A DNA stretch of 64,000 nt from Eledone cirrhosa. Its lineage: Eukaryota. The stretch is taken from positions 109,988,001 to 110,052,000 of the forward strand of contig OZ024743.1 in the NCBI GenBank assembly GCA_964016885.1, given 5' to 3'. Below, in pieces: positions 1-64,000 of this stretch. The translations under genes and the position numbers were made by a program. The notes under the pieces were generated by a model, which was not told where the DNA came from, searched no databases, and saw only the letters and a program-made list of their open reading frames with translations. Numbering within the stretch: the stretch's first letter is position 1; each line of letters opens with the position of its first letter.

Positions 1-426
1 TATCGATACTAGAGTCAGGTCCATATGAGGTCGATTGGCCGCTCTCCATCTTTCTCTCTCTCTCACCTGTCCCAAGACAAACATTAAATGAACGAAGATG
101 TTTATTTCTCCGTTACGAGCCTCCTATTATTGTCAGTAATCTCATTCATCAAAACTAAAGTAGGGTGAGATCTGAAGAGCATATTTTAATGTTTGTGACC
201 TGTTCTTTTTCAAACATTCTGTTTCTTCTTTCCTATATTCTCTTCCTTCTTTCCAGTCAACTCACACCGAACCGCTGATCTCTGTCCTTCGAGGTAATAT
301 TTCACCCAACGGCGTTTCGACGGTATTTTGCTATTTTAAAAAGCTTCCATACGCTGAGTGTTTCCCTTTTCCTGAGAATTCTAATACACCAGAGTCTCAA
401 ACCTAGATTTTCGAGTTAATTTGTTT

Positions 427-2380: not shown

Positions 2381-2448
<68 letters not shown>
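2346..2448. repeat. (AT)n followed by (AAT)n; the AAT part is the 3' tail/target of the Tx1-like LINE
   Basis: Direct reading; abuts the LINE 3' end at 2449. Confidence 0.9.
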
Positions 2449-2450
<2 letters not shown>

Positions 2451-2679
2451 TTTATTTATTAACCACAAGGGTTTACATAAAGTAGACATTAAGGACAGTA
2501 CAGGACAATACAGGACGGTACAAATGGGCATTTCTGCGTATAAAAAAAAGAAAAACAGATAATGTAACAAAAGAATAACAATGAAAAATTCCCCAATAGG
2601 GGGGAGACTTCCGATGGACATTTGTGGAGAAAGCCCGTTAAAAGATCAGTGACCCTTCTCCCAGTTTTCTACCTTAAAT

Positions 2680-5600
2680 TTACAGGCACATACTCAGAGT
2701 AGGCCCATTCACTCGGGCCATACTTGTCTCTCTCACCCATCTTTCAACAAAATACTGGGAAGAGAGCACTTCCCTCTCTACCCTGGTTTTCCTTTTCAAA
2801 TGAAATTTGAAAAAGTTACTCAGGGCATCACAGAAGAGGTAAGTGCTCGTCTTCAGCCCTTTCAAACGTGTCCACCATACTATCACTTTCGCCATGGCCA
2901 CCAGACAGATAAAAACTACCTGACCTTCCCGGCTAAAGGAAGAGGGCGGGGCAATCCTCCCGATGGACACAGCTGATAGCTGGAACCGTCCTACACGTGA
3001 CAGCAGGTATTCGACATAAACCCACAAGTCAGCAATGCTCGGACACTGGACGAGTGCGTGCAGGGCGGTTTCGTCACCCTGCGCGCATCTCGGACATGCC
3101 CGGATGACAACACCTCCATGTCTGTAGAGTTTATCCCGAACTGGCAAAGCTCCTCGGTAGCACGGCCAGGCCAGGGATTTCTGGAAGTTGTCCGGCCCGA
3201 AAGTCCTTCCGAAGAGATTGGCTAGTTGTTTTTCGTCGACGCCTAGAGTTTCTCCAAGGACGTCGTCGCTCTTCCCCTCAACTAATCCTCTATAGAATGC
3301 CAAGGTTGAGTTTCCACCGATCACATTGCCCGATTGGTCGAGGACTTTGAGCGCCTGAAGACATTCATGTCTCCAAGCGCTCCCTCTTGGTCTTCGCTTG
3401 ACCTAGGACTGCAGCTCCGTCAAGGAGACGAGCTGGGGACAGACGTGTCTAGAAAACGGCGACCACACCTCATAACCATCGAGGAAGAGGTGCAGATGTC
3501 GTAGCATGTGCGCGTCTCTGCGCATCATCAGCCACGGAATGTCCAGCCATCCACGTAGCGGGTGTTGACAGCAGATGGAGCGCCTGACCATTGGAGCGCG
3601 TACCTTCCACAAAAAGCGAAAGAGCAAACGCTCCAGCGCTGTCAGGTGGGGCTTAGGACAAGGTACGACGGTCAGGCGGTAGTAGATGACGGACGCGATG
3701 TACCCGCTAACCACCTCCGCTCCACCTTTCAGGGAGAGCTTCCTCTCCGCCCATTTCAGGGTGAGAGAAGCCACACTGCTCTTCAACTCGTCCCAGTTTA
3801 TGTCCGCCTGGAGGTCCGGACCGAACCAGACCCCTAGCAATTTAACCGGTCCATCCGTCCAGCGCCCGACGACGCTGTTGAACTGTATGGACCTGCCTCT
3901 CCAGGTGCCGAGGTGCAGGCCCACTGACTTCTCATGGTTGATCATTGCTCCTGTCGCCGCTTCGTATTCTCTTAGTGTAGTGCCGATTGCCTCGATGTGT
4001 TTGGCGTTCGACATCACTACGGTGACATTGTCCGCATATGCTGACACGGATCTTCCGCATCCTAGTCCTCGCGGGACCCCCCTCCCTCAACGTCTTTAGT
4101 CCGTTCAGTAATGGCTCGAGAGTCAATAATTACAAGAGGAACGAAAGGGGACGTACTTGGTGGACCGAGCGGTAACGATGGTCGACCCTATCGAAAGCTT
4201 TCGACTGATCTAAATTGATCAAGGACCCACTCGTGCCAAGTTCCCTAACTACCCTCTCTACGATGTATCGCATGAGGTGGAGGTTGTCGTGGATGGATCT
4301 ATCGGGAATGGCGCATGTCTGCGCCTCTCCCACCAGACCACCAACGATAAGCGCCAACCTTTTTGCTAGCACCTTGGCCAAAATCTTAAACTGTCTGTTT
4401 AGCAGAGTTATGGGCCTGAATTTATCTATGTTTTCCCCCTTGTTCGTATCCTTTCTCAGCAGCGCCACAGCTCCTCGGCTCACAGAGCTGGGAATTCTCC
4501 CGTTCTGTTGCCAGTTGCAGTAGACATCCGCCAAGAGGCCTCCGAAAAAGTTTGGCATCTGTACGTAAAGTTCATAGAGCAGACCATACAAACAAGGAGA
4601 GTTACCCTTGTGCAGCCAGTCAGTGTCTCCCGTACTTCAGCGGCTGTTATCGGCTTTTCGCAACTCTCCGCCTCAGTGGCTGAGAGCCGGGGAGATCCGT
4701 CGAGGTAGACACTAAAGTCCTTCCCTCGATCCGGCCTGCCGCAGCCCACGAACAACTGTGCGAAGTGTCGCTGAAAAGATCCACATATTTGCCCGGGATC
4801 GAGTAGTATGCGCCCGTCGTGGTCCACCAAAGAACGGATCGTGGCTTTGTTGCCACGACGCGCCTCCGCCACTCGGGCCAATTGAACAGCCTTCGTCTCC
4901 TCGTGTCTGAGATCAGGCACCCTAGCTCTTCCAACGCAGTCTTCGTGCTTTGCATTGAAGAATTGGTCAAGGGCCAATATCGCCGTAAGTACGTCGGTCG
5001 CGATGCCTTTGCTAAGCGGCTCGTCTAATTTTTTAACTAGTTCACCCTCTGCTATATTTTTCTCTATTTCTAAAGCCTTACTAAACGGAATGGACTCTAT
5101 TCTAATCGCTCTTTTCAGAGCAAACCACCACTTGTTGTTGACGATGGCCCCCGTCAACGCCCGCTTAACTAGTTCGCTAATACGGTCTCTGTAAGCCTTG
5201 CGCACTGGTAAGGACGCGTTTAGACTCCAGTAGCCGGATCCTCGTCTATGAAACCTATCTAAGTCAAGCACACAGATCACGAATTTATGGTCCCTGTAGC
5301 TGACTATCTTGAATTGTGGACAGCCTATGCTAGACCTATCTATTTCCCTACAAAATACTCTAACTAGATATGATTTGGATGACCCTATGCGACTTGTCCA
5401 AGTCCACATTGGCGCATTCGGGAAATCCAATGGGTACCTGTCAGACAGTTCAAAACGCCTGAGCAGGTTGGTGAGGCTCTTGCACCATCCTCCACTATCC
5501 GCTAATCCCACACACTCCCAGTCTGCATCTAAGATCCCGTTCCAGTCGTCCACTAACACTAAAGATCGGGACGTTCCAAGAAAGGTCTCCAGACGCTGAG

Positions 5601-5968
5601 AGAAATCAGGTCGCCCTGCTCCTGTCGGGGCATAGACAGCCACTAACCTGAAAGCTTGTCCGTCACCGCTGGTCATGTCCAGCACCACCAACTTACCCTC
5701 TGGGTCCAGGAAGATGGCCCGTATGTCGAGATCCAAACCTCTCCGAAAAAGCACAGCACCTCCTCCCACCCGATCCAGGACGGCTGGGAGATGCGTACAC
5801 ATCGTAGCCGCCGAAGATCGGTGCGAAGGCCCGTGCTTCGGAGATTCTGGTCTAGCTGATGGCCACTACATTTATGTTTAGTGACCTGAGGTCGTTGAGC
5901 AGGTGGCCCTGCTTCCATGACGACCCCAAGCCACGCGCATTTATGATGGCTATTCTGAGTGAGGTCAT
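2680..5968 (-). pseudogene. ORF2 of Tx1-like copy 1: AP endonuclease, reverse transcriptase and C-terminal zinc finger; frameshifted, with an internal RT deletion near 4160
   Basis: Fragments 4480..5802 (AVYAP, DWN, YL.R, DHK), 4130..4591 (FRPITLLN, LDQSKAFDRVDH), 3403..4047 (YADN, NHEKS), 2680..3324 (CPRC..DETALHALVQC). Start M-T-S-L-R-I-A-I-I-N-A-R-G-L at 5968. Confidence 0.88.
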
Positions 5969-6040
5969 GTTGAAATGGAGTGGAAAAGATGGGAAAGACC
6001 ACTTACCTTACTTCTCAGAGAGGAAGGATGGTTTTCCATC

Positions 6041-7939
6041 CTATTCACCGCTTGTGGCCTCCTCCGGAAGGATGTCCTTATAAATCCTCGTGGGGAGTGC
6101 TTGTCGGAAGTCTCCGATGTCTTTGGGGAATATTTGTTTAAGTGTCGTGTACGTTTTCTGTGAGATGGGAGTGATTTGTATGTGTGGAGGAGGTGTGGAC
6201 TTTTGGGTTGTTGTGTAGTCTTTTTCTGTGATACTGGTGTTGTGTTGGATGTAGTGTAATAATTGGTTGTTGTTCAAATGTATTGTTGTGTAGTGTGTAT
6301 CGTTTTGGTTGTTTTGTTTTGTTTGCGTTTGTTGTGGGTTTTGTTTCTGTTTCGCTTTTTAGTGACTTTTGTGGTGTTGGTGATGGTGGTGTTGGGGTTA
6401 ATGATGGTGATGGTGTTGGTGTTTGTGGTGAATGGGTTGGTGATGTTGGTGTGGATGGTGGCATAGTTGTCTTAACTTTTTTGGTTGAGAGTTTATTTGT
6501 TTCCCTCTGTATTTTGTTTTTGAAGGAGGAAGGAAGGGGATTTTTTTTCTTTTTTGGTTTCTTTTTCTTTTTTTCTTTTTTCCTGATACTGTTTCCCACT
6601 CCTCGTCGTCACAATCTGTCTCCAGTTGCGATAGGTCGGGGAGTGGAAAATCCTCCAGAGGCGTTGGTTTTGGTTGTGACGTGGTGGATGGTGTAGGCGC
6701 TGGTGCTAGTTCTGGCGCATTGGGTTGTAGTGGTGTTGGTTTTGCTACTGTTGCTGGGATTGTTGCTGCTACAGTTGCTTCTGTTGTTGGTGCTACAGTT
6801 GTTGCTGCCATTTCTGCTGCTGGTGGTGTTGATGGTTGAGTCACTGGGGTGGGTAAGAGAGGTGATCTCAACCTTTTAGCATGAGGGCAGAAAGCCCTTA
6901 GGTGGGTTCCTTCACCACAAACGACACATTTAGTCCTTCTATCCTCGACGATTACGGTGAGGTGGCTGCCGTCAGTGAGGTCTATTACCTCTGGGATCTT
7001 CTCAATGCTTTTTTGGTCCGCTTAGATCAGGAGCTCCATCCCAGATCCGGACCAGTTCTCCTGCTTTTCATTCGCTATTTCGATTATCTTGGTGTTGGCT
7101 TCGATGCCGGCGAGGGCGGCAGCTATTAGCCAGGGAATTTCGATGGCCGGTGGTCGTGGGCCACCCTGATCTTCACGAGTCTCTGGCCACAATAGCTTGG
7201 GACGAGTGTGAAGTCGTCACTTCTTAATGGGGCCATGGAGTGTTCTCTCGCCTCCTATGGTGTTCGAAAGCACACGTCCACGGTTCCATATTTCTGTCCA
7301 CATCTGATGTGGGGGTTTTTATGCCCACATATGTCCCAAAGCGTTTTGGATTTGCGACTCGGATGCCCGTTCCACTCGGCGCGATTTTATTATATTCGTC
7401 CGATAAGACACGGTTGATAGGCGCCCATGCTCCATTTTATTAGATGGGGTGAGGCTGACCCTGTACCCATATTTCTTTACCAATCTTTTGGCTTCTTATT
7501 ATTCCTCCCGAGTTCCCTGGTTTGCTTCGCACTTTTTTGCTACTCTGGCAAAAGACATGGTGGTTTTCTTATTCTCATTTTTGTTGTTGCCGTTGTGGTT
7601 ATCGTTATTTTTGTTATTGTTAATTTTAGTTTCAGTTGTGGTGGTTGTGGCGTCAGGGGTGTTCGGTGTGGAAGAGTTCATTTTGGGTGAATCCATTTCG
7701 ATGTCACGACATAATTTATTTATTTATTTTCTTTCTGTTGTCGCTGTGGTGGTGGTGTGGGTGGCGGCTTCAAGACCTGCAGTCATTGGTAATGGCGGGA
7801 AATGAATGTCTGCGTGAGACAATTTAAAAATATTGCTACTGCTTATATTTTTAGTGTTGGCAAACGTAGTGATATTTACAATGGTGGTGTCGGTGTGAGG
7901 TGTTAGTTTGTGAGGAAGGTGTGAACCTGAGTCGTCCAT
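6041..7939 (-). pseudogene. ORF1 of Tx1-like copy 1 (low-complexity T/P/N linkers, gag-like core, C-terminal domain); frameshifted
   Basis: Fragments 7499..7696 (SFARVAK), 6398..6871 (PLPDL..E.W..V), 6041..6277; homologous to ORF1 pieces at 45297-47287 and 60945-62900. Confidence 0.75.
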
Positions 7940-8191
7940 GATTTTCAAAGAAAATGTTTTGTTTGATAATTATAAAAGTTTAAATTTTGGGCTCAAGGCC
8001 CCAATCGTTTTGAGTGTCCTTTTGAGAAAACAATGTATGTGCACTTATATACAGTTAACAATAAATATTTTCCATTAATGACAATTTTAAACAACTGAAA
8101 ATAACAAACATTTGCTCACGATAACACGATTTACTACGTACGTCGCCAATGATAATAATAATAATAATACTAATAATATTAATAATAATAA

Positions 8192-10949
8192 GTGAGGAAA
8201 TTAATTGGCATAAAAGCGAGAGGAAACAACAAAGAAGAAAGATCAGGACCTTGGTGGAAGAAACGACTGAATGATCAAATCAGGGAAATGAGAAATGACA
8301 TTGGAAAGCTTGAGTCCCTACTGAATGGGACACTAAAAAACATAGACACTAAAAATAGACTGGAAATAAAGTACAAAACTAGGAGGATAAGGCTAAATAT
8401 TATCATAGTGAACTGAAGCAACGCATTGTAGCAAAGAGTGCAAAAATTAGGCGATACGAGAGCAGAGTCAGTCAGTATAGACAGAACGGCATGTTTGACA
8501 ACAACCAGAAGATGTTTGGACAGCTTGAGGGGAAAGAAAGAGGCAACGACTTGATCCCTGAGGCTGAAGAAACTAAGACATTCTGGAGAGGAATATGGGA
8601 GCAGGATGTTAAACATAATGACCAGGCAGTGTGGATTGAGACAGTACAAAAGGAGATTAGTGAACAGGAACACCAACAAACTGATTTGAGTATCACAGTT
8701 GAAACTCTCAAGGGGCAGGCCAACAAACTAACCAACTGGAAATCACCAGGTCCAGATGGTATGCAGGGGTATTGGATTAAACATGTAACATCCCTCCACC
8801 CGAAACTAACAACCATGTTCAATGACTGCTTGATGTCTGGTGAGGTACCAGAGTGGCTGACAAAATGTACCACAGTTCTGGTAATGAAAGTCCGGATCAA
8901 GGGTAATGATGTTACCAACTATAGACCTATTACATATCTGTCCGTAATGTGGAAACTGTTGACAAGCATTGTGTCTGAGGAAATCTACCATCATCTCCAC
9001 ACAAACAACTTATTACCGGACGAACAGAAAGGATGCCGAATGAAATCCAGTGGTACAAAGGACCAGTTACTTATTGATAAGATGGTAATGAGGAATTGCA
9101 AGAGGAGACACACTGGTCTTGCCATGGGATGGATAGACTACAAAAAGGCATTTGACATGGTGCCTCATTCTTGGATCGCCAAAAGCCTAGAGATCTTCAA
9201 GGTAGCAGATAACATCAGACAGTTGTTGAGTAAAAGTATGAAGTCCTGGAAAACAGAGTTAACATCTGCTGGAGAATCCTTGGGAGGCGTGAAGATCAAG
9301 AGAGGTATCTTCCAGGGACATAGTCTGTCCCCTCTGCTGTTTTTCCTTTCCCTGATACCGCTGACCATTATACTGCGAAAAGTGAGAGCAGGATACATGT
9401 TGGGAAAGGGAGAGCTTACCATCAATCACCTCATCTTCATGGACGATCTTAAGCTCTTCGGGAAGAGTGAGAAGAGTTGGATGTGCTTGTTGACACTGTC
9501 CGTATTTTCAGCAATGATATATGTATGCAATTTGGTATGAGTAAGTGTAGAGTCCTTGTGATGAAGAGGGGTAAATTGAGCAGAAGCAACGGAATCCAGG
9601 TACCAACAGGTGAGATGATAAAGGAAATTGACACGGAAGAAGGATACAGTTATTTGGGTATTCTGGAGGCTGATGACATCAAGAACAAAAAAAAATGAAG
9701 GAATTGATAAGATCTGAATACATTCGGAGAATAAGGAGCGTATTAAAATCACGTCTGAACAGTAGGAATGCCATAAGTGCAGTAAATTCCCGAGCTGTGT
9801 CTATTGTTGGGTACAGAGCAGGAATTGTGAGATGGAATGTTGCTGAACAAAAAGAAATGTATAGGAAGACTAGGAAGCTATTGACTATCTACAACATGTT
9901 CCACAAGAGGAGTGATGTCGATACACTCTACTTAAGGAGATCTGAAGGTGGAAGAGGTCTTATCAGCATAGAGGACTGTGTTCAGATGGAGAAAAACAAC
10001 CTGCAGAAATACGTGACCGATAGTAAGGAGCCAATGCACAGAATTCTACTGAAGGAGAGGACAATAGACCAGGGGATGTCCAAGGAGGAAATAACAACGA
10101 GGAGAAAGAGCAACCTTCATGAAAAATCCCTTGATTGTACCTTCTTTGAGAAAACGGAATTCAGAGATCCACAGACATGCAACTGGTTGAGAAGAGGAGA
10201 CCTTAAAAAGGCTACAGAAGGAAAGCTAATGGCTGCGCAAGAGCAGGCCCTCAAACGAAGTGGCTGAAACACCATATATACAAGGAGGAGGCTAGCCCAC
10301 TGTGCAGGATTTGTGGAGAGAGAGAGGAGGCTGTAGCTCACATTGTATCCGAGTGTAAACACCTAGCCCAGACTCACTATAAAGGCTGGAGAGATGATGT
10401 GAAGGGCAGGGTCATCCACTGGCACCTATGAAAAGTAAACAATTTACCACATTCTGAGAAGTGGTATGAGCATAAGCCAAAGTCGGTGATGGAAAACGAT
10501 CAGGTGAAGTTGCTAAGAGATTTTAGGATACAGACGGACAAGAAACTGGAACACAATAGACCTGACCTGGCGGTTTTGGACAAGGAAAAAAGATCGTGCC
10601 TGATTGTGGATGTGGCCTGCCCATTCGACGTGAGAGTGCAAGAGGAGGGGGAGAAAATTAACCGATACCAAGACTTAAAGTGGGAGGTAAAAAGGATTTG
10701 GAACTGCCATGAGGTCAAAGTGGTCCCGATTGTCACAGGCGCACTAGGTACTATCTCAAAGAGTTTCCACGGATGGTTAAAGAAAATTGGTCCCGCCCCA
10801 CTTTTTGGAACACTTCAAAAGGCATGCTTGCTGGGAACAGCAAGAACACTCCGATACGTCCTGAATATCTGAGGTTGCAGGTAGTGACTTGATATTCATT
10901 TCAACAAACTTTCCAGTTAAATAACATTAATGACTGAGACTCAAAGAAC

Positions 10950-10998
<49 letters not shown>
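8192..10998 (+). mobile_element. R4/Dong-like RLE LINE family A, copy 1 (5'-truncated, frameshifted) with (AAT)n tail
   Basis: ORFs 8192..8416, 8491..9540 (SPGPDG, NYRPIT, IDYKKAFD, GIFQG, FMDDLKL), 9695..10267, 10486..10872 (RPDL, DVACPFD, GALG). Tail about 10947-10998. Confidence 0.92.
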
Positions 10999-11000
<2 letters not shown>

Positions 11001-13006
11001 CTGTTGACGAGCATTGTGTCTGAGGAAATCTACCATCACCTCCACACAAACAACTTGTTGCCGGACGAACAGAAAGGATGCCGAAAGAAGTCACGTGGTA
11101 CAAAGGACCAGTTGCTTATTGATAAGATGGTAATGGGGAATTGCAGGAGGAGACACACTGATCTTGCCATGGGATGGATAGACTACAGAAATGCATTTGA
11201 CATGGTGCCTCATTCCTGGATCACCAAAAGCCTGGAGATCTTCAGGGTGGCAGATAACATCAGACAGTTGCTGGGCAGGAGTATGGGGTCCTGGGAGACA
11301 GAGTTGACATCAACTGGAGTATCCTTGGGAAGCGTGAAGATCAAGAGAGGTATCTTCCAGGGAGATAGCCTGTCCCCTCTGTTGTTTGTCCTTGCCCTGA
11401 TGCCCTTGACCATTATGCTGCGAAAAGTGAGAGCAGGATACAAGTTGGGAAGGGGAGAGCTTACCATCAATCACCTCCTCTTCATGGACGATCTTAAGCT
11501 TTTCGGGAAAAGTGAGAAGGAGTTGGATGTGCTTGTTGACACTGTCCGTATTTTCAGCAGTGATATATGTATGCAGTTTGGTATTGGTAAATGTGGAGTC
11601 ATTGTGATGAGGAGGGGTAGGTTGAGCAGAAGTAACGGGATCCAGATACCAACAGGTGAGATGATAAAGGAAATTGACTCTGAGGAAGGATACAAGTATT
11701 TCGGCGTTCTGGAGGCTGATGGCATAAAGAACAAAAAAATGAAGGAATTGTTAAGAACTGAATACATTCGGAGAGTAAGGAGCGTATTGAAGTCACATCT
11801 GAACAGCAGAAATGCCATAAGCGCAGTAAATTCCCGAGCTGTGTCTATTATTAGGTACAGTGCGGGAATTCTGAGATGGAATGTTGCTGAACAAAAAGAA
11901 ATGGATAGGAAGACTAGGAAGCTATTGACTATCTACAACATGTTCCACAAGAGGAGTGATGTCGATAGACTCTACCTAAGGAGATCTGAGGGTGGAAGAG
12001 GTCTTATCAGCATAGAGGACTGTGTTCAGATGGAGAAAAACAACCTATACAAATACGTGACCTATAGTAAGGAGCCAATGCTCAGAGCTGTACTGAAGGA
12101 GGGGACAGTAGGCCAGGAGATACCCAAGGAGGAAATAACATCAAGGAGGAAGAGCAGCCTTAAGGGAAAATCCCTTCATAGTACCTTCTTTGAGAAAACT
12201 GAATTTAGAGATCCACAGACATGGAACTGGTTGAGAAGAGGAGACCTCAAAAAGGCTACAGAAGGAATGCTAATGGCTGCGCAGGAGCAGGCCCTCAAAA
12301 CGAAGTGGTTGAAGCACCATATCTACAAGGAGGAGGCTAGCCCACTGTGCAGAATCTGTGGAGAGAGAGAGGAGACTGTGGCTCACATTGTGTCCGAGTG
12401 TAAACACCTAGCCCAGACCCACTATAAGGGCTGGAGACACGATGTGATGGGCAGGGTGATCCACTGGCACCTGTGCAAAGTAAACAATCTACCACATTCT
12501 GAGAAATGGTATGAGCATAGGCCAGAGGCGGTGATGGAGAACAGTCAGGTGAAGGTGCTGTGGGATTTTAGGATACAGACGGACAAAAAACTGGAGCACA
12601 ATAGACCTGACCTGGTGGTTGTGGACAAAGAAAAAAGATCGTGCCTGATTGTGGATGTGGCCTGCCCGTTCGACACGAGAGTGCAAGAGAAGGAGAGGGA
12701 GAAAATTAACCGATACCAGGACCTAAAGTGGGAGGTGAAAAGGATTTGGAACTGCCATGAAGTCAAAGTGATCCCGATTGTCATAGGCGCACTGGGGACT
12801 ATCTCCAAAGGTTTCCAGGGATGGTTAAAGAAAATCGGCCCCTTCACGCTTTTTGGAACGCTTCAAAAGGCATGCTTGCTTGGAACGGCAAGAACCCTCC
12901 GATACGTCCTGAATATCTGAGGCTGCAGGTAGTGGCTTGATATTCAATCCAACGGACTTTCCAGTTAACCAACATCAATGACTGAGATTCAAGGAATAAC
13001 AATAAC

Positions 13007-13048
<42 letters not shown>
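10999..13048 (+). mobile_element. R4/Dong-like family A, copy 2 (5'-truncated, young) with (AAT)n tail
   Basis: Begins inside the tail of copy 1; uninterrupted ORF; short 3' UTR; tail about 12994-13048. Confidence 0.95.
11004..12920 (+). CDS. 5'-truncated RT-CCHC-RLE ORF of R4-like copy 2 (638 aa open; no natural start)
   Basis: [73 protein letters not shown]. Confidence 0.85.
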
Positions 13049-15283
13049 CACCAGGCCCAGATGGTGTGCAGGGGTATTGGATTAAACATTTAACATCCCT
13101 CCACCCGAAGCTGACGGCCATGTTCAATGACTGCTTGGTGTCGGGTGAGGTGCCAGAGTGGTTGACAAAAGGTACCACAGTTCTGATAATGAAAGACCGA
13201 ATCAAGGGTAATGATGTTACCAATTATAGACCTATCACATGTCTGCCCGTAATGTGGAAACTGTTGACGAGCATTGTGTCTGAGGAAATCTACCATCACC
13301 TCCACACAAACAACTTGTTGCCGGACGAACAGAAAGGATGCCGAAAGAAGTCACGTGGTACAAAGGACCAGTTGCTTATTGATAAGATGGTAATGGGGAA
13401 TTGCAGGAGGAGATACACTGATCTTGCCATGGGATGGATAGACTACAGAAAGGCATTTGACATGGTGCCTCATTCCTGGGTCACCAAAAGCCTGGAGATC
13501 TTCAGGGTGGCAGATAACATCAGACAGTTGCTGGGCAGGAGTATGGGGTCCTGGGAGGCAGAGTTGACATCAACTGGAGTATCCTTGGGAAGCGTGAAGA
13601 TCAAGAGAGGTATCTTCCAGGGAGATAGCCTGTCCCCTCTGTTGTTTGTCCTTGCCCTGATGCCCTTGACCATTATGCTGCGAAAAGTGAGAGCAGGATA
13701 CAAGTTGGGAAGGGGAGAGCTTACCATCAATCACCTCCTCTTCATGGACGATCTTAAGCTCTTCGGGAAAAGTGAGAAGGAGTTGGATGTGCTTGTTGAC
13801 ACTGTCCGTATTTTCAGCAGTGATATATGTATGCAGTTTGGTATTGGTAAATGTGGAGTCATTGTGATGAGGAGGGGTAGGTTGAGCAGAAGTAACGGGA
13901 TCCAGATACCAACAGGTGAGATGATAAAGGAAATTGACTCTGAGGAAGGATACAAGTATTTGGGCGTTCTGGAGGCTGATGGCATAAAGAACAAAAAAAT
14001 GAAGGAATTGTTAAGAACTGAATACATTCGGAGAGTAAGGAGCGTATTGAAGTCACATCTGAACAGCAGAAATGCCATAAGCGCAGTAAATTCCCGAGCT
14101 GTCTATTATTAGGTACAGTGCGGGAATTCTGAGATGGAATGTTGCTGAACAAAAAGAAATGTATAGGAAGACTAGGAAGCTATTGACTATCTACAACATG
14201 TTCCACAAGAGGAGTGATGTCGATAGACTCTACCTAAGGAGATCTGAGGGTGGAAGAGGTCTTATCAGCATAGAGGACTGTGTTCAGATGGAGAAAAACA
14301 ACCTATACAAATACGTGACCTATAGTAAGGAGCCAATGCTCAGAGCTGTACTGAAGGAGGGGACAGTAGGCCAGGGGATACCCAAGGAGGAAATAACATC
14401 AAGGAGGAAGAGCAGCCTTAAGGGAAAATCCCTTCATAGTACCTTCTTTGAGAAAACTGAATTTAGAGATCCACAGACATGGAACTGGTTGAGAAGAGGA
14501 GACCTCAAAAAGGCTACAGAAGGAATGCTAATGGCTGCGCAGGAGCAGGCCCTCAAAACGAAGTGGTTGAAGCACCATATCTACAAGGAGGAGGCTAGCC
14601 CACTGTGCAGGATCTGTGGAGAGAGAGAGGAGACTGTGGCTCACATTGTGTCCGAGTGTAAACACCTAGCCCAGACCCACTATAAGGGCTGGAGACACGA
14701 TGTGATGGGCAGGGTGATCCACTGGCACCTGTGCAAAGTAAACAATCTACCACATTCTGAGAAATGGTATGAGCATAGGCCAGAGGCGGTGATAGAGAAC
14801 AGTCAGGTGAAGGTGCTGTGGGATTTTAGGATACAGACGGACAAAAAACTGGAACACAATAGACCTGACCTGGTGGTTGTGGACAAAGAAAAATGATCGT
14901 GCCTGATTGTGGATGTGGCCTGCCCGTTCGACACGAGAGTGCAAGAGAAGGAGAGGGAGAAAATTAACCGATACCAGGACCTAAAGTGGGAGGTGAAAAG
15001 GATTTGGAACTGCCATGAAGTCAAAGTGATCCCGATTGTCATAGGCGCACTGGGGACTATCTCCAAAGGTTTCCAGGGATGGTTAAAGAAAATCGGCCCC
15101 TTCACGCTTTTTGGAACGCTCCAAAAGGCATGCTTGCTTGGAACGGCAAGAACCCTCCGATACGTCCTGAATATCTGAGGCTGCAGGTAGTGGCTTGATA
15201 TTCAATCCAACGGACTTTCCAGTTAACCAACATCAATGACTGAGATTCAAGGAATAACAATGGCAATAATAATAATAATAATA
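13046..15283 (+). mobile_element. R4/Dong-like family A, copy 3 (5'-truncated, nearly identical to copy 2)
   Basis: ORFs 13066..14112, 14159..14896, 14909..15178. A 2-bp deletion near 14100 (gagctgtctatt vs gagctgtgtctatt) and AGA>TGA at 14894. Confidence 0.95.
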
Positions 15284-15403
15284 ATTGTTTCTACTTTAGG
15301 CACAAGGCCAGCAATTACCAGTGCATTACTGGTACTTTATTTTATCGACCCCGTAAGGATGAAAGGCAAAGTCAACCTCGGCGGGATTTGAACTCAGATG
15401 GTA

Positions 15404-15404
<1 letters not shown>
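15284..15404 (-). mobile_element. tRNA-derived SINE (5'-truncated), inserted in the (AAT)n tail of R4 copy 3
   Basis: Minus strand has the B-box gagttcaaatcc, the central motif gcctttcatccttacggggtcgataaaataaagtacc and the 3' end ccttgtgcctaaagtagaaacaatt. AAT on both sides. Confidence 0.85.
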
Positions 15405-15453
<49 letters not shown>

Positions 15454-15465
15454 TAATAATAATAA

Positions 15466-15694
15466 AAAGTGATCCCGATTGTCATAGGCGCACTGGGGAC
15501 TATCTCCAAAAGTTTCCAGGGATGGTTAAAGAAAATCGGCCCCTTCACGCTTTTTGGAACGCTTCAAAAGGCATGCTTGCTGGGAACAGCAAGAACCCGC
15601 CGATACGTCCTGAATATCTGAGGCTGCAGGTAGTGGCTTGATATTCATTCCAACGGACTTTCCAGTTGACTAACATCAATGACTGAGATTCAAG

Positions 15695-15763
<69 letters not shown>

Positions 15764-15793
15764 TAATAATAATAATAATAAGAAGAAGAAGAA
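15466..15793 (+). mobile_element. R4/Dong-like family A, copy 4 (about 230-bp 3' end) with (AAT)n then (AAG)n tail
   Basis: Matches the 3' end of copies 2 and 3 (aaagtgatcccgattgtc...gactgagattcaagg). Confidence 0.92.
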
Positions 15794-16759
15794 GGGAAGT
15801 GGACGCACGTAGTGGATAGAATGTTATGGAATCGCTCCCGTAATTTTTTTAATTTTTAAAATATTTAAAACAATTGTGATATAACAATTCGTAGTACAAA
15901 TGTGACATAAAGCGCTAGGTTTTTTTTACTATGAGGAAATTCGGATCCATAATATCCTGTTATATCGCTCATATATGCAATTTTGTATTATAAATTTTAT
16001 ATTCAAAAAGAAAATGGTTATAAATAGAAGAAACCCGCTCTGTCTGCACTATATATAACAGCAATTTCACCAACACCACAAACTAGATACACCACCTATC
16101 CCATCACCCCTCTGTGTACACTAAACACAACAGCCAGATAACTGCAATTTCACCACCACCACCACCACCAATCACAGCATAATAATAGTAATTACTATTA
16201 TTTTATCTCATGTCTTCTCAAAATGTTTAATTCAAATATTAAGAAAAGTATGTCAACACATATATTAAACATACGCGACAAACCGCATAGATACACAGAT
16301 CAAACAAACGCATACTACTACAGTCTATTCAACAAAACTCAGTAATTTCAACGCCATCACGATAGTCACCGCCGCCACCACTTCATCATTTCTACCACTA
16401 TTCCATCACCGCCGCCACCACTCCTTCAAGGCTACCACCACTATTCCCCCACTACCTTCTGTTAACTTAAGAAAGGGGAAGGTGGCGGTATCACTAGACA
16501 AGGGAGAGGCTAGCAAAATATAAACATAGACTCACTTAGTGATCCGGTCAAACGTCAACGTCTGCTGGCTCTCTCCTTCCCCACCAACAATAGAAAAAGC
16601 CCCAGCACCACCACCGAGATAGCCAATAACAATAACAGGCAACTTCAACAAAAAGTATATAATATTATTAATAATAATTTCATTCTTAAGCCACGCAATG
16701 CTCACATTAAGGTACCACTCATCATAATAACAATTTAAAAAACAACAAAAATGAAAACC

Positions 16760-19700
16760 CCGTGACCAAGAAATACCGGGAAGGCGGCCGGCGGGGAATA
16801 GGCGTGTCTCTAGGGGAGGACGACCCCTCTAGCCTTGGTTGACACTCGTCCTAGAAGTGGTAACACGAAATAATTACCCCTTGGCGGCTAAGGATATAAC
16901 GCGACAAAATAAAGTAAATGTCAAATGATAAAATCTCATACCGGATCGGCCGTCACCCGGATCAAAAAGGGCCGCGTCCCTCAGAGAGGAACCAGACTGA
17001 ATTCGAAAAATCAGCTAATGGTTCAAACCTTCCCATCACTTCAGAGCTGGAGACCTCCCATAACCGGAATACTCCTACTGTTAGCCGCCCATGCTCACCA
17101 CCAAGAAATCCAAAGAAAAAGAGAGAACATGGTCAAGGGAAGACAATAAAGAAGTCATTGAGGCTTTCTACACTGCCATGTACTACCCATCAAATAGATC
17201 GAATACAGAACAGACATATATCAACTGGAAAAAGAAACATTCCCAAAACAGAGGCTATATTGACCGTAACAAACTATCCAATATACGAAGAAATATTGTT
17301 AAAAAAAGTTACTAACTGATATGGAAATTGATCAGATTAAGCTATTAGCACAAAGTCAGCGAAGGGAAAATGAAGCATGTGTCAGTGAAAACGAGGTAAA
17401 TTGTAACACATCGAATCACAGGTTTGGGGCGGAATCACTGACAACAGAAGAAATTAAAGATAGGATCGAAAAAGTGGAGGGAGTGCATGCTCAAGATGAA
17501 ACTCAAAATGAAAACAATGATATCGTAAATGATAAAGAAATGAATGAGAATGAACTTGCCAACTTGAAGGATGAAATTATGATCGAATGGATGAAAATGA
17601 AATAATTTGACATGGGGGAAGGAGACACTCTCCCTAAGATCCAGAACTCCAAACAGAACCAAAAGATAATACACAAGACTAATATAATTCTCAAAAACAT
17701 TATCATCACAAACAAACTAAACATTACTGATCTAAATCATCTCTATTATGCATCGGCTAAAGTCACCACTTACTTATGTGGAGTGAAAATGAAAAAAACA
17801 AAGGAATTCCCACCTGAAATCTGTTTGGCAAGAGAACATCAATCGCCAAATAAACCTTCTCCGATCTGACATAGAAATTTTACAAAGTAGGTGAATATGT
17901 TAAACAAACTAAACTTAGAAAATTGAAAAGAAAATGCAGTATAAAATCAACAAGTGACATAGATATGCTGATAGAAATAATCAAGCAATAAGTGTCGGCC
18001 AAAGCTGCTCGTATAAGGCGATTTGAAAAACGATCTAGATTCTATAAGGACAATAATATGTTCAAAGACAACCAAAGAAATGTCTACAGAAAAATTGGCA
18101 AGTCAACAATAACTGCTAAATCAATGCCACCCAAGGAGGGAGTGCAAGAATTCTGGGAAAAGATCTGGACCGAAGAAAAAGTTCATAATATACATGCCCC
18201 ATGGATAGACAGACAAATGAAAGACACAGCTCACTTTGAGGAACAAATATGGGAAAATATAACAGTTGAACAGTTGCGTTTGGCTCTTAGAAAAAAACAG
18301 TAAATGGAAAACCCCAGGAAAAGACAAAATAGCAAATTTTTGGAGAAATGCCTTCACAGAGTCTCATGAGCTGTTAGCCCAACTTTACAATGAAATTGTT
18401 GAGGAGCCAGAAATGATACCATCATGGCTAGTTAACGGCATTACATTCCTGCTTCCGAAGAATGATGAGACAAACAATCCAAAAAATTACAGACCGATAA
18501 CTTGCTTAACCACAATGTATAACATTTTAACATCAGTCCTAACTGAATATATATATGACCACCTGATAACAAATGTTCTATTTCCCAATGAGCAGAAATG
18601 GGGTAAACGAGCCTCATATGGCTGTAAGGATCAGCTTTTGGTTAACAAAATGATACTGGAAGATTGCATAATAGACACAAAAATCTATCAATTGCTTGGA
18701 TAGATTATAAAAAACGCATTCGATAGTTTGCCACACAGTTGGATTGAAAAAGGTTTAGAGATTTTCTAAATATCTCCCGTTGTCAGGAGGTTCCTGTCAT
18801 TCAGTATGAAGACATGGAAAACGACACTCCTTTTGAATAGTGAAAAAAAATCACTGGAAGCTGGAGAAGTTAATATTAATTGTGGAATTTTTCAGGGTGA
18901 CTCTTTACCACCGCTTTTATTCTGCATCGCACTTATACCATTAAGTAAAATGCTCAATGAAACAAAACATGGATATAAAGTCTATCACAAAACCATTAAT
19001 CACTTGTTCTACATGGATGACCTGAAATTATTTGCAAAAAATGATGAACATTTATAAGGACTATTATCCACTGTGGAGCAGTTCAGTGATAACATTAAAA
19101 TGGAGTTTGGACTAGATAAATGCGCCAAAGCAACGTTCACCAGAGGAAAGCTGCTGAAAAGTTCAGACATTAATCTTGATCGGTGGAATGTGATAAGAGA
19201 ACTTGATCAAGAGGACAATTACAAATAACTAGGTGTTTGTGAAGGAGACGGAATCAAGCACTCGACAATGAGGGAAAGGATAAGGAAGGAATGTTACCGC
19301 AGAGTAAGAACAATCTTAAGAACGGAATTGAATGCAATGAATAGGATCGATGCCATAAACAGGATTGCCATACCAGTAGTAACCTACATTTACAATGTCA
19401 TCAACTGGTCAAGTACAGAGATCCCTAGGCTCAATACAAAATTATAAAATTCTTAACCATGCACAGAATGCATCACCCAAAGGCAGTTACAGATATAATA
19501 TGTCTCCCTAGGAAAGAGGGACGACATGGATTAATCCAGTTATATATTGCGTTCAACACTGCAAAAATTGGGATTATATACATATCTAAGGGAATCACAT
19601 AATTGGATGATCAAACTCGTTTTGAAAGACTAAAGCATCAACAGATCATACTCCATTACAAAAGATGCACAAAGGTACAGTAATGGACTATAACTTTCAG

Positions 19701-20691
19701 AAGTCCCATTTACTGCTGAAATGGAAAACACAGAAAAAGCAAAGCAGGTAAAAGTAACTGCAAAGAAACTGGCTAATAAATGGCAAGAAAAGCCTCTGTA
19801 TGGAAAATACCCAGAAAGAGCTAACAATCCTGATGTTGACAAAACTTTAACCCATCAGTGGTTGGCATCCTCTTGACTGAAATTGGGGACTGAAAGACTG
19901 ATTATATCAGCACAAGATCAGTGTCTGCCAACAAAAAATTACCAAGCCAACATAATAAAAATGGATGCAACCCATTATGCCGTGTATGTAAAATACAACC
20001 ATAGACCATTGATCCTATAATTTCAATGTGCAGTCCTATAGCTCCAACCGAATACCTAAACAGGCATGACAGAGCTGCACAATACATACATTGGATAATG
20101 TTTAAGCATTTTGACCTGCTCCATCAAAAGAATTGATGGGAGCATCAACCACCTCCTATATTTGAAAAAGATCACATGTCAATCTTTTTGAACTTTAGCA
20201 TCCAAACAGACCGAAAAATAGATGCATATAGACCTGATATAATACTGAAGGACTTTAAAAAGAGGGTATGCCTGCTAATTGATATGTCCGTTCCAATAGA
20301 CAAGAATGTATCTATAAAAAACATTTGAAAAATTGAGCAAGTATAAGGAGCTGGAGATAGAAATTGGAAAAATGTGGACAATTGAGATCTAAAACAATAC
20401 CAGTGGTTGTAGGCACTCTAGGAATGATACATAAGGTGTCTAATGATTACGTATCGCAAATCCCAGGAAACCCGCGTATAGTAGAAATACAAAAGATAGT
20501 ACTAATGGAAACTGCCCATATACTAAGGAAGATTCTGTCAATATAATTACATCACAAGTCATAACACTTAAAGATGCATGCGTGTGTATGTATGTTCTTT
20601 CTTGAACATGGCAGACTTTGTTGTCTCTTGAGGTCACTGGTTGTGACTTGGTGATAACTCGTATGAACATAAAGGAAGATAAATGCAACTG

Positions 20692-20722
<31 letters not shown>

Positions 20723-20730
20723 AATAATTT
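16760..20730 (+). mobile_element. R4/Dong-like RLE LINE family B, apparently full length and decayed, with (AAT)n tail
   Basis: N-terminal [57 protein letters not shown] remnant near 19980, RPD near 20230, IPVVVGTLG, IQKIVL..TAHILRKILSI. Many stops and frameshifts. Confidence 0.88.
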
Positions 20731-20820
20731 TATTAATAATACATTTGAAGACTAAAATCCGAACAATGCTCGATAAGGATAAATATATATCAGATATATA
20801 AGAACCGTGGAGCAAATATT

Positions 20821-20962
20821 TATTAAATTAACAGATTAAAGTTTAAGCAAAGAATCGCTGCCTTCACCCTTCACGGGATCTTCTGAAAATCAGGAGTTTC
20901 AAAAGAACCCGTTAAGGGTGAAAGCAGCGATTCTTTGCTTAAACTTTAATGTTATTTTAATA
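20821..20962. repeat. Fold-back inverted repeat (about 65-bp arms, 8-nt spacer) with degenerate hammerhead-like core, adjacent to (AT)n
   Basis: ttaaagtttaagcaaagaatcgctgccttcaccctt... pairs with ...aagggtgaaagcagcgattctttgcttaaactttaa. Confidence 0.85.
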
Positions 20963-41723: not shown

Positions 41724-41849
<126 letters not shown>

Positions 41850-41942
41850 GTTTTCTTTATTAACCACAAGGGTTCACATAAAGTAGACATTAAGGACAGT
41901 GCGGGACAATACAGGACGGTACAAATGGGCATTTCTGCGTGT
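41850..41942 (-). mobile_element. 93-bp 5'-truncated Tx1-like 3' end flanked by (AAT)n on both sides
   Basis: Nearly identical to 2449-2540 (ttaaccacaaggg...aagtagacattaaggacagt...caaatgggcatttctgcgt). Confidence 0.9.
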
Positions 41943-41971
41943 AACAATAATAATAATAATAATAATAATAA

Positions 41972-47534: not shown

Positions 47535-47892
47535 ATTCTGAGAAGTTTTATGAGCATAGACCAGAGTCGGCGATAGAAAACGATCAGGTGAAGTGTTATG
47601 GGATTTTAGGATACAGACGGACAAAAAATTAGAACACAATAGGCCGGACCTGGTGGGTTTGGACAAGGGAAAAAAGTTCGTGCCTGATTGTAGATGTAGC
47701 GTGCCCATTTGACACGAGAGTGCAAGAGAAGGAGAGGGAGAAATAAACCGATGCCAGGATTTAAAGTGGAAGGTAAAACGGATTTGGAACTGCCATGAAA
47801 TAAAGGTCGTCCCGATTGTCATAGGCGCACTAGGTACTATCTCAAAGAGTTTCCAAGGATGGTTAAAGAAGAATAGTCCCGCCCCGTTTTTT
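47535..47892 (+). mobile_element. R4-like family A RLE fragment
   Basis: Matches the copy 1/2 RLE region (gggattttaggatacagacggac...gtcataggcgcactagg). Confidence 0.85.
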
Positions 47893-48183
47893 TGTAGGCG
47901 CTCTAGGAATGATACCTAAGGGGTCTAATGATTACTTATCGCAATCCCAGGAAACCCGCGTAAAGGAGAAATACAAAAGATAGTACTAATGGAATCTACC
48001 CATATACTAAGGAAGATTCTGTCAATATTCACCTAAACACCTAAAGATGCATGTGTGTGTATGTATGTTCTTTCTTGAACATGGCGGACCTTGTTTTCCC
48101 TTGAGGTCACTGGTTGTGACTTGGTGATAACTCGTATGAACATAAAGCAAGATAAATGCAACTATAATAATACTAATAATAAT
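47893..48183 (+). mobile_element. R4-like family B 3' end with short AAT tail, joined directly to the family A fragment
   Basis: Matches 20408-20705 (gtaggc.ctctaggaatgata...gaggtcactggttgtgacttgg). Confidence 0.85.
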
Positions 48184-58806: not shown

Positions 58807-58858
<52 letters not shown>

Positions 58859-58860
<2 letters not shown>

Positions 58861-59563
58861 TGTAGGATATGTGGAGAGAGACAGAGAGAGAGAGAGGAGA
58901 CTGTGGCTCACATTGTATCCGAGTGTAAACACCTAGCCCAGACTCACTATAAAGGCTGGATAAATGTTGTGATGGACAGGGGGATCCACTGGCACCTATG
59001 CAAAGTAAACAATTTACCACATTCTGAGAAGTGGTATGAGCATAAGCCAAAGTCGTTGATGGAAAACGATCAGGTGAAGTTGCTATGAGATTTTAGGATA
59101 CAGACGGACAAGAAAACTGGAACACAATAGAATTAACCCTGTGGTTTTGGACAAGGAAAAAAGATCGTGCCTGATTGTGGATGTGGCCTGCCCATTCGAC
59201 GTGAGAGTGCCAGAGAAGGAGAGGGAGAAAATTAACCGATACCAGGACTTAAAGTGGGAGGTAAAAAGGATTTGGAACTGCCATGAGGTCAAAGTGGTCC
59301 CGATTGTCATAGGCGCACTAACTAGGTACTATCTCAAAGAGTTTCCACGGATGGTTAAAGGAAATTGGTCCCGCCCCACTTTTTGGATCACTTCAAAAGG
59401 CATGCTTGCTGGGAACAGCAAGAACACTCCGATACGTCCTGAATATCTGAGGCTGCAGGTAGTGACTTGCTATTAATTTCAACAAACTTTCCAGTTAAAT
59501 AACATTAATGACTGAAACTCAAAGAACAATAATAATTATAATAATAATAATAATAATAATAAT
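58859..59563 (+). mobile_element. R4-like family A 3' fragment (CCHC and RLE), flanked by (AAT)n on both sides
   Basis: [24 protein letters not shown]; AAT tracts at 58808-58859 and 59527-59563. Confidence 0.92.
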
Positions 59564-60485
59564 TGTTGGGGTTTTTTCTGCTGTTTGTTTGTTTGTTTAT
59601 TTGTGTTCGTCTACAGCGCGATAATGCCACACAAGAGCCACGTGGAGTGACACAACCACCGGAGGCGGTGAATCCACCGGTGGTTATGTAACCATACATT
59701 CGCCAATCCTCGATAAGCGTGTTTAAACGTCGAAGCTAAACAGTTCGAATAACGGTGAAATGGAGACTAGAACATCATGTGACAGAATCTCACCCAACAG
59801 GTGCTGCCTGGCTCAGCAGCAGGGACCTGGCTGTCAATCAAATACTGCTGGTGTCGGAGGAAGAAGAAGAAGGAAAGGGACCAGAACCAACTGGACGAAA
59901 TAATTGAATAGAACTGTTATGCAATGTTACCTGAAAAGTAACCCCAAGGTGAGGGGCTATAGGGAACGGATGCATAAAATCTTGAACGAGATTGGTCTAT
60001 TTGAGCATAAGCCAGAGTCGGTGATGGAAAACAATCAGGTGAAGGTGCTGTGGGATTTAAGGATACAGACGGACAAGAACATGGAACAATAGACTTGACC
60101 AGGTGGTTTTGGACGAGGGAAACAAATCGTGCCTGATTGTGGATGTAGCCTGCCCATTCGACACGAGAGTGCAAGAGAAGGAGAGGGAGAAAATTAACCG
60201 ATACCAGGACTTAAAGTGTGAGGTAAAAAGGATTTGGAACTGCCATGAGGTCAAAGTGGTCCCGATTGGTACTATCGCTAAGAGCTTCCAAGAATGGTTA
60301 ATGAAAATTGGTCCCGCCCCGCTTTTTGGAACACTTCAAAAGGCATGCTTGCTGGGAACAGCAAGAACCCTCCGATACGTCCTGAATATCTGAGGCTGCA
60401 GGTAGTGGCTTGATATTCATTTCAACAAACATTCCAATTAAATAACACCAGTGACTGAGACTCAAAACAATAATATTAATAATGT
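59564..60485 (+). mobile_element. Internally deleted R4-like family A element: 5' UTR and ORF N-terminus fused to the RLE/3' end
   Basis: ATG at 59760; RTNWTK.LNRTVMQCY..S.P..RGYRERM (R4/Dong N-terminus) joins at about 60002 to EHKPESVMENNQVKVLWD. Confidence 0.82.
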
Positions 60486-60494
60486 TAATTTAAT

Positions 60495-60729
<235 letters not shown>

Positions 60730-63700: not shown

Positions 63701-64000
63701 CATTAGGTTTAGTAAAACTTTAGCAATAGAGAAAAATAGAGCAGAGGGAGAACTAGTTAGAAAATTAGATGAGGCGCTTAGCAAAGGCATCGCGACCGAC
63801 GTGCTTGCGGCGAAGTTGGCCCTTGACCAATTCTTCAATGCAAAGCACGAAGGCTGCGTTGTCAGAGCTAGGGTGCGTGCTCTCAGACACGAGGGGACGA
63901 AAGCCGTTCAATGGGCCCGAGTGGCGGAGGCGCGTCGTGGCAACAAAGCCACGATCCGGTCTTTGGTGGACCACGACGGGCGCATGCTACTCGATCCCGG
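60730..64000 (+). mobile_element. Tx1/L1-like LINE, copy 3 (5' end, ORF1 and APE part of ORF2; continues beyond the window)
   Basis: ORF1 ATG at 60945, SFAGIAK, zinc knuckle CFRCGSKTHLSPFC; ORF2 AVYAP, GDWN, YLDR, DHK; ORF2 nucleotides closely match copy 1. Confidence 0.9.

Follow-up and report, generated by a model that had tools for sequence, protein, structure and literature searches.

Dong and Tx1 retrotransposons occupy the same AAT microsatellite in opposite directions in the genome of Eledone cirrhosa

In a 64,000-nucleotide stretch of the Eledone cirrhosa genome (contig OZ024743.1; hereafter the window), retroelements of several kinds lie end to end, joined by tracts of one trinucleotide repeat. 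The locus raises the question of how such a cluster grows, and how its members come to face in opposite directions. The initial annotation had proposed that three retroelement types use one (TAA/TTA)n microsatellite as a landing pad, and all repeat positions quoted there proved correct when re-read. The array begins at 2415 as described, but its end had been placed too early, at 15793; it continues through a second Dong family to 20730 (Table 1). Within this single array, (AAT)n joins all members: a Tx1-like LINE (APE, minus strand), four 5'-truncated Dong/R4-like LINEs (RLE, plus strand), a SINE (minus strand) and the second Dong family. The proposed head-to-head contact stands, the 5' ends of Tx1 copy 1 and of the Dong array both lying on the tract at 8148-8191, and so does the Tx1 orientation of the SINE in a Dong tail. 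Tx1 copy 1 has ORFs interrupted by stops and frameshifts and is 89-90% identical to an intact copy. Dong families A and B have their 5' start in common, and an (AAG)5 run is the opening of the family B copy. As (AAT) tracts of at least four units make up only 0.18% in 200 kb sampled at even intervals across the genome, the association of tracts and elements in the window is not due to chance.

Table 1. Retroelements and repeat tracts of the three clusters and the 3' margin of the window
Feature	Position	Strand	Remarks
(AAT)11 tract	2415-2447	+	array left end, at Tx1 3' end; preceded by (AT)n run
Tx1-like LINE copy 1, family Tx1A	2451-8147	-	full-length; ORF1 and APE-RT-zf ORF2
Imperfect (AAT)n tract	8148-8191	+	head-to-head, common to Tx1 5' end and Dong copy 1
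Dong/R4-like LINE family A, copy 1	8192-10949	+	5'-truncated, older; 94% to subfamily copy
(AAT)16 tract	10950-10997	+	
Dong family A, copy 2	10998-12994	+	5'-truncated, young; open RT-CCHC-RLE frame
(AAT)n tract beginning with AAC	12995-13048	+	
Dong family A, copy 3	13049-15252	+	5'-truncated, with a truncation point of its own; young
Dong 3' end with (AAT)7 tract	15253-15285 (repeat 15265-15285)	+	
SINE, 5'-truncated	15286-about 15400	-	Tx1 orientation
(AAT)n tract	15404-15465	+	
Dong family A, copy 4	15466-15695	+	230-bp 3' fragment
(AAT)28 tract	15696-15779	+	
Second Dong-like family (B)	15780-20690	+	near-full-length, decayed
(AAT)n tract	about 20692-20730	+	array right end
(AAT)n tracts flanking Tx1A fragment	41775-41849, 41946-41969	+	
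Tx1A 3' fragment, 98 bp	41850-41947	-	(AAT)n either side; second cluster 41775-41969
Third cluster	58807-60466	+	two Dong A copies and (AAT)n tracts
(AAT)17 tract, third cluster	58807-58857	+	
Truncated Dong A, third cluster	58886-59527	+	
(AAT)n tract, third cluster	59528-59561	+	
Dong A with internal deletion, third cluster	59566-60466	+	
(TTA)30 tract	60638-60727	+	directly 5' of plus-strand Tx1 copy; separate tract, other polarity
Tx1 copy, family C, 5' part	60730-64000	+	APE domain match at 62883-63998

RT and zf domains were detected in both LINE families in the window, with APE in the family C Tx1 copy, and intact young copies of both kinds are present elsewhere in the genome. An intact Dong copy (P0001) has a single open frame of 1141 aa with RT (RVT_1, E 5e-23), CCHC and PD-(D/E)xK; its best solved relatives are R2 proteins, its C-x2-C...H...C and RPD...VD...K motifs align to the R2 endonuclease stretch, and the domain search gave no Exo_endo_phos hit, i.e. 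no APE. It was classed as R4/Dong-like on its single ORF with a non-LTR RT, the C-terminal CCHC and PD-(D/E)xK, and the TAA target on the sense strand; among the 120 homologues listed, clade names were absent. An Rfam scan of 15200-17400 for a 5' HDV-like ribozyme of Dong gave only two sub-threshold repeat matches. The intact Tx1 copy (P0002) carries APE (Exo_endo_phos, E 9e-14), RVT_1 and zf-RVT, with L1 ORF2 as best PDB match; there are open frames upstream of ORF2, ORF1 has no family match, and among named homologues the best bears the annotation 'Transposon TX1 149 kDa protein' (32% identity). It was classed as Tx1-like on ORF1 with an APE-RT-zf ORF2 and a target-sequence preference with short duplication and no poly(A). 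One Dong family has at least 9058 copies in the genome (exact 24-mer; genome-wide copies were counted by exact patterns), and about 5.6% of the sampled DNA is Tx1 or Dong.

Dong and Tx1 occupy the same AAT repeat in opposite directions at thousands of genome sites. When 269 tracts, from loci mostly anchored on elements, were set to read AAT, Dong was found 240 times in plus and 4 times in minus orientation, Tx1 147 times in minus and twice in plus, and the SINE 35 times in minus and twice in plus. Dong-Tx1 neighbours were opposite in 79 of 80 cases; orientation relative to the repeat is thus non-random, as had been claimed for this locus. Among the first 100 hits per family on contig C1, all 19 Tx1-Dong pairs within 300 bp were opposite (0.11 expected), and pairs within 100 kb were opposite in 127 cases versus 13 in the same direction. 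Unanchored sequence of 590 kb gave a similar picture, 11 of 12 AAT tracts of at least 18 bp touching an element and 19 of 20 contacts having the predicted orientation; other microsatellites touched an element in 1/47 (ATC), 0/46 (AG), 2/103 (AC), 13/389 (AT) and 10/117 (AAC) cases. Elements stack into chains of one polarity that reach about 116 kb; the 116-kb array on C1, chosen because of its polarised appearance, had AAT in 30/30 tracts, every Dong in plus and every Tx1 in minus orientation. An (ATT)10 search returned 209,121 overlapping matches, and the 30 loci taken from it held no more than four different tracts.

It had been predicted that the 5' flanks of young copies are enriched for TAA/TTA, and this was borne out for both LINEs. 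Genome-wide, TTATTATTATT immediately precedes the 5' end of 1907 of 2060 full-length Tx1A copies, compared with 129 of 1,180,000 background positions (0.011%). All 30 full-length Tx1 5' ends inspected individually had at least four TTA units, none had AAT, and the 30 junctions were in one phase; ATT came after 80 of 82 Tx1 ends. Most of the sampled junctions lie within the initial 54 Mb of C1, with clusters common to samples. For Dong A copies whose truncation falls within the ORF (C1 sample; 17 of 88 copies dropped, their 5' end being out of view), at least four AAT units stood at the 5' junction in 38/55, and in 19/22 young copies, against a background of 0.06%, while TTA of at least three units occurred in 0/55; the other 17 copies lacked a 5' tract. 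As a control, a CR1 LINE was used whose tail is ATT (median 4 units); at least four TTA units stood at 0/21 of its approximate 5' boundaries (21 copies whose shared sequence begins inside the locus).

The view that three retroelement types use the repeat holds for the Tx1 and Dong LINEs but not for the SINE, which mostly inserts at ATTAT anywhere. ATTAT came next at 27 of 30 SINE ends; 13 of the 30 copies clearly had duplicated 11-19 bp of non-repeat sequence, and one had long tracts on both sides. SINE copies ran into (ATT)5 in 3043 of 64253 cases (4.7%), versus 85 of 2849 background ATTAT sites (3.0%), and this 1.6-fold difference falls short of the use of long repeats above motif background that would mark a microsatellite-specific SINE. 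SINE and Tx1 are identical in ATT phase and orientation, and, of the last 24 nt of the SINE, 15 and 16 agree with Tx1 ends (shuffle p 3e-4 and 2e-5, respectively), a short match in an alignment picked after inspection. The SINE likely uses Tx1 enzymes, as judged from sequence.

We consider it probable that Dong and Tx1 insert in opposite directions in (AAT)n through opposite-strand nicking, and that arrays grow by tract splitting. From target-primed reverse transcription and the orientations, the Dong RLE is predicted to make its first nick on the ATT strand and the Tx1 APE to nick the AAT strand, where the junction fits a T/A cut in AAT/AAT. Tx1 and SINE insertions at sites other than pure repeat were accompanied by short duplications beginning at ATT (about 11-16 bp for Tx1). 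Each insertion would split one tract into two usable tracts, and growth proportional to the tracts already there would let one seed yield one polarity. ATT tails of CR1-like LINEs may be one seed source, and the SINE, borrowing the Tx1 machinery at ATTAT, would enter arrays as a passenger.

A possible though doubtful alternative for one partner is that Tx1 recognises ATT(AT) only, the long 5' repeat being RNA-borne or favoured at 5' joining, so that Tx1 would partly make its own pad. At least four TTA units were found at 16/17 full-length but only 12/36 truncated Tx1 5' junctions (82 ends, of which 25 out of view were dropped and 4 had no alignment; some of the 36 copies are alignment breaks or fusions). 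Truncated Tx1 is thus far less bound to long tracts, and Tx1 specificity may be a short ATT(AT) motif. The single phase of full-length junctions and the use of ATTAT alone by the SINE fit this reading, as does the reported inclusion of upstream target sequence in R2 RNAs (PMC3774820). However, 22 full-length copies with both flanks showed, by eye, no clear displaced unique duplication outside the 5' tract, truncated Tx1 is still far above background, and the explanation is inapplicable to truncated Dong copies.

How the repeat is renewed is a separate matter. According to the initial annotation, each insertion leaves a repeat tail that is a new target, and reverse-transcriptase slippage would add such a tail. 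The running of 84/88 Dong A 3' ends into at least three AAT units, many opening with family-typical AAC units, and the presence of Dong, Tx1 or SINE across 24/30 Dong 3' tracts agree with this. Yet the median length was 30 bp for tail-to-tail tracts (n=38) and 48 bp for head-to-head tracts (n=39), so that the former were no longer than the latter (p=0.17); the outer tracts on the 5' side equalled those on the 3' side in length, and Tx1 copies at non-repeat sites (L039, L052, L058, L208) ended directly in duplicated target without an added tail. Renewal mainly by tails is therefore unlikely and was not upheld; splitting, duplication and slippage are the likelier source. About 35-45 bp of repeat is found per junction, for which an 11-19 bp duplication alone falls short, and target-site duplication together with slippage would keep this length. 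Joint priming of Dong and Tx1 with head-to-head fusion was also considered; tract-less junctions were found in 10/45 head-to-head and 5/34 tail-to-tail cases. As neither class clearly exceeds the other, simple deletion is enough to explain them.

The claim that clusters grow by added insertions held, in that Tx1 identity was not higher within clusters (94.5%, 17 pairs) than between them (95.3%, 173 pairs). Element ages within arrays are mixed. Since neighbouring copies are no more alike than distant ones, the insertions that built the arrays were separate events. An origin by tandem duplication in place, or by unequal crossing-over between repeats, is accordingly very improbable, and largely refuted for the arrays examined: Dong copies 2 and 3 in the window are 99.2% alike and a short Tx1 fragment forms a three-copy tandem at L220, but each of these Dong copies is closer to a C1 copy (99.7% and 99.5%, respectively) than to the other, and all 55 truncated Dong A copies have distinct truncation points. 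Of 90 LINE ends used as anchors, 59 had another LINE on the far side of the tract. Under a Poisson model fitted to this figure, the chance of an array of at least 25 is near 1e-16 per seed; under a growth-by-splitting model it is 3e-5 per seed. The largest array exceeds the simple growth-model expectation for 50 Mb, so regional effects probably add; large arrays could also be obtained from regional differences in insertion or removal. Passive pile-up, in which copies insert at random, persist where the region tolerates them and are lost where inverted, is scarcely credible. The TE hotspots reported in Octopus vulgaris (PMC13282606) and the excess of the largest array speak for it, but it cannot yield base-exact (AAT)n junctions, nor can it make two unrelated families face in opposite directions, and the CR1 control had neither feature.

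The proposed insertion by opposite-strand nicking with tract splitting would explain how TE hotspots arise in octopus-like genomes; the text of a recent annotation maps such hotspots but leaves them unexplained (PMC13282606). It also suggests that long AAT microsatellites in these genomes are mostly retrotransposon junctions, a point relevant to marker design and genome assembly. The pair brings unrelated nuclease folds to the two strands of a single 3-bp repeat, as predicted here, and both LINEs have young copies that are intact, which allows a direct test of RLE and APE strand and phase choice; the same pair could show how much RNA-DNA pairing contributes to target choice. The difference between LINE and SINE at long tracts (93% vs 5%) makes the cis-versus-trans question testable.

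Parts of this system are already known, namely Dong targeting of TAA, microsatellite-targeting Tx1 elements, and opposite-strand sharing by SART/TRAS. The R4-clade elements Dong of Bombyx mori, DongAg and DongBg target TAA microsatellites (PMC3812793), the B. mori Dong having TAA repeats before its 5' end on the sense strand, from the primer (PMC3774820), and R4-Dong elements among molluscs are reported almost only from cephalopods (PMC10294476). The present Dong resembles these in its TAA target and single ORF with RT, CCHC and PD-(D/E)xK, and is unlike them in the abundance of one family, the presence of two families, and dispersed arrays shared with an APE element. Tx1-clade APE LINEs with microsatellite preference include Kibi (TC)n, Koshi (TTC)n and crocodilian (TTCC)n/(TTTC)n elements (PMC4494074); unlike these as described there, the Tx1 studied here targets (ATT)n and shares it with an RLE element. 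Among the papers returned by our literature searches, none described a Tx1 element that targets ATT, or a target common to Dong and Tx1. Crocodilian SINEU is reported to be mobilised by Tx1-Mar and to share its target with weaker preference (SINEU-1 23%, SINEU-2 13%, SINEU-3 90%; PMC4494074); that target is a DNA transposon, whereas the SINE-Tx1 partnership proposed here is read from junction phase, orientation and the 24-nt end match only. SART1 and TRAS1 of Bombyx mori are two LINEs inserting into one repeat in opposite directions, the TRAS1 endonuclease nicking between T and A and SART1 requiring at least 3 units (PMC7265360). Both are APE elements of the telomeric repeat, as described there, whereas here unrelated endonuclease folds, with predicted nicking, meet on an interstitial trinucleotide repeat genome-wide. 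A wider joint reading, for and against which we see the case as evenly balanced, is that RLE and APE elements converged on opposite repeat strands, create target for each other as well as for themselves with every insertion, make most long (AAT)n of this genome and polarised domains of more than 100 kb, and carry a very abundant Tx1-driven SINE passenger, the pair being a parallel to the telomeric SART/TRAS system that is dispersed and amplifies itself.

Re-reading of the window bore out every coordinate quoted in the initial annotation. Its array, in a genome of 3.0 Gb, spans ~18 kb with Dong B and the final tract counted in (table). The mix of SINEs and LINEs resembles that of an octopod.

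Array in the window and related features (positions are those of the window; L-numbers are loci sampled elsewhere in the genome)
Feature	Position or locus	Strand	Context
(AAT)11 tract			left end of array
Tx1A	2451-8147	-	followed by tract
Dong A copies 1-3		+	one tract after each copy
SINE	15286-15400	-	followed by tract
Dong A copy 4		+	between SINE-side tract and (AAT)28
Dong B, near-full-length	15780-20690	+	beyond (AAT)28, followed by final tract
~150-bp unclassified repeat	20731-20882; L003, L026, L041, L080, L144, L178
Tract-less Dong-Tx1 fusions	42923/42924; L020, L024, L128, L170, L191, L195, L196, L210

Intact copies were obtained from C1, another contig of this genome. The Dong copy encodes a 1141-aa protein (RT-CCHC-PD-(D/E)xK) with R2 as its nearest structures, and the Tx1 copy a 1152-aa protein (APE-RT-zf) nearest to L1 ORF2, with one homologue annotated TX1; the clade names Dong/R4 and Tx1 are putative assignments from architecture and target. 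Exact-pattern counts over the whole genome gave 9058 Dong A ends, 7552 Tx1 ends, 2060 starts of the Tx1A family and 64253 SINE ends. Full-length Tx1 is thus unusually frequent for a LINE, one subfamily having 2060 starts against 7552 Tx1 ends. An 11-kb stretch within the large C1 array (L067-L068, C1:37157451-37168736) starts with a Tx1-type 3' end and carries + strand frames of 300-400 aa, with no match to the reference elements used.

Dong A and Dong B share the 5' start and some of the 5' UTR but have unlike coding regions (15780-16500 vs L065, L075). Behind the AAT tract, full-length Dong copies frequently open with AAG repeats. A Dong A copy (59566-60466) lacks ~2.7 kb of its interior, with a short word common to both sides at the join, and a chimera at 47535-48160, adjoining a Tx1 5' end, changes at 47892 from Dong A sequence to the 3' end of Dong B. 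The elements often abut compound tracts of the form (TTC)n(TTA)n or (AAC)n(AAT)n (60595-60727, 41724-41849; L201, L203, L213, L214, L217), and some Tx1 junctions lie at TTC, ACT or GTT runs. The ~150-bp repeat starts directly after (AAT)n in 7/269 cases, always in a single orientation.

The Dong and Tx1 pattern at (AAT)n is real and genome-wide, and the fixed orientation relative to the repeat that had been proposed was upheld. Among the first 100 matches per family on C1, all 19 pairs at most 300 bp apart were opposite (expected 0.11). In an anchored sample of 269 tracts set to AAT, contacts were Dong + in 240/244, Tx1 - in 147/149 and SINE - in 35/37, and 79 of the 80 Dong-Tx1 neighbours were opposite. 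In an unanchored survey of 59 evenly spaced 10-kb stretches, an element adjoined 17/28 tracts of at least four units and 11/12 of at least 18 bp, with the predicted direction in 19/20 contacts; other microsatellites seldom adjoined one.

The repeats are targets and not only tails, as shown by the 5' flanks, whose predicted TAA/TTA enrichment was found in junction samples weighted to the first 54 Mb of C1 and, for Tx1A, genome-wide. Tx1A starts directly after TTATTATTATT in 1907/2060 cases (background 129/1,180,000 positions). Among 88 Dong A copies, the 5' end was in view for 71, of which 46 had (AAT)≥4. This repeat was present at 38/55 copies truncated inside the ORF (19/22 young ones; background 0.06%), where it cannot stem from the RNA start; (TTA)≥3 was found at 0/55. 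A control LINE with an ATT tail (8509 ends by exact pattern), which we take from its motif to be CR1-like, had (TTA)≥4 at 0/21 approximate 5' boundaries. Alternatively, the Tx1 nuclease may read ATT(AT) alone, with 5'-junction pairing favouring long tracts, in line with (TTA)≥4 at the 5' end of 12/36 truncated vs 16/17 full-length Tx1 copies. No clear displaced duplication marking an RNA-borne repeat was seen in 22 full-length copies.

Target-primed reverse transcription starts from a nick in the DNA strand that lies opposite the sense strand of the element. Because the Dong sense strand reads AAT, Dong would nick the ATT strand; that of Tx1 reads ATT, which would place the Tx1 nick in the AAT strand, and the junction phase would put it between T and A. 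Opposite-strand nicking is so deduced from orientation and this priming scheme. A single seed tract would then set the polarity of all later insertions into it or its fragments. CR1 tails would be one likely source of seeds; 6/30 reached at least 6 units, and CR1 lay beside a LINE at 2/90 anchored ends.

Growth of clusters by successive insertion was supported, neighbours being no more alike than distant copies: Tx1 identity was 94.5% within and 95.3% between clusters, and window Dong A copies 2 and 3 are each nearer a C1 copy than one another. In a 116-kb C1 array, a region selected for polarity, 30/30 tracts read AAT, every Dong match was + and every Tx1 match -. A LINE lay across the tract from an anchored LINE end in 59/90 cases. 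Under a Poisson model fitted to this fraction, arrays of 25 are essentially impossible, and under growth-by-splitting rare but possible, both models being crude; regional effects probably add to array size. Truncated Dong and truncated Tx1 are also fused directly, some with a few shared bases, possibly through joint priming or through deletion where a tract had been nicked twice. L191 and L199, 21 Mb apart, share a non-element sequence after their Dong A tails, which may reflect 3' transduction or duplication. L058 and L049 hold an inverted Tx1-in-Tx1 insertion with a 15-bp duplication and an inverted SINE pair resembling twin priming.

The proposal that 3' tails become new targets was not supported. 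Tail-to-tail tracts, with a median of 30 bp, did not exceed head-to-head tracts (48 bp) in length; tracts of at least 3 units without an adjoining element had a median of 9 bp. Outside pure repeats, Tx1 had no added tail, ATT followed 80/82 ends, and in several copies the following 11-16 bases duplicate the 5' flank. Splitting and duplication are thus seen at these sites; we infer that the remaining ~20 bp of repeat per junction is due to slippage.

Nor did the SINE prove to use the microsatellite: its ends run into (ATT)5 in 4.7% of cases genome-wide vs 3.0% of ATTAT sites, and long tracts lay on both sides in 1/30. ATTAT followed 27/30 copies, 13/30 with a clear 11-19-bp duplication. Junction phase, orientation and 15-16 matches between its last 24 bases and Tx1 ends make Tx1 its somewhat favoured partner.

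Our searches of published papers found no ATT-targeting Tx1 and no target sharing by RLE and APE elements. Dong is already known to target TAA repeats (PMC3812793, PMC3774820), and Tx1 families are known on TC, TTC, TTCC and TTTC repeats, with Tx1-driven SINEs of weaker target preference (PMC4494074). SART and TRAS enter one telomeric repeat in opposite directions (PMC7265360), and Octopus vulgaris has Dong-R4 and L1-Tx1 among its recently active LINEs, with unexplained hotspots (PMC13282606). The Dong and Tx1 pattern is a variation on this known behaviour of target-specific retrotransposons.
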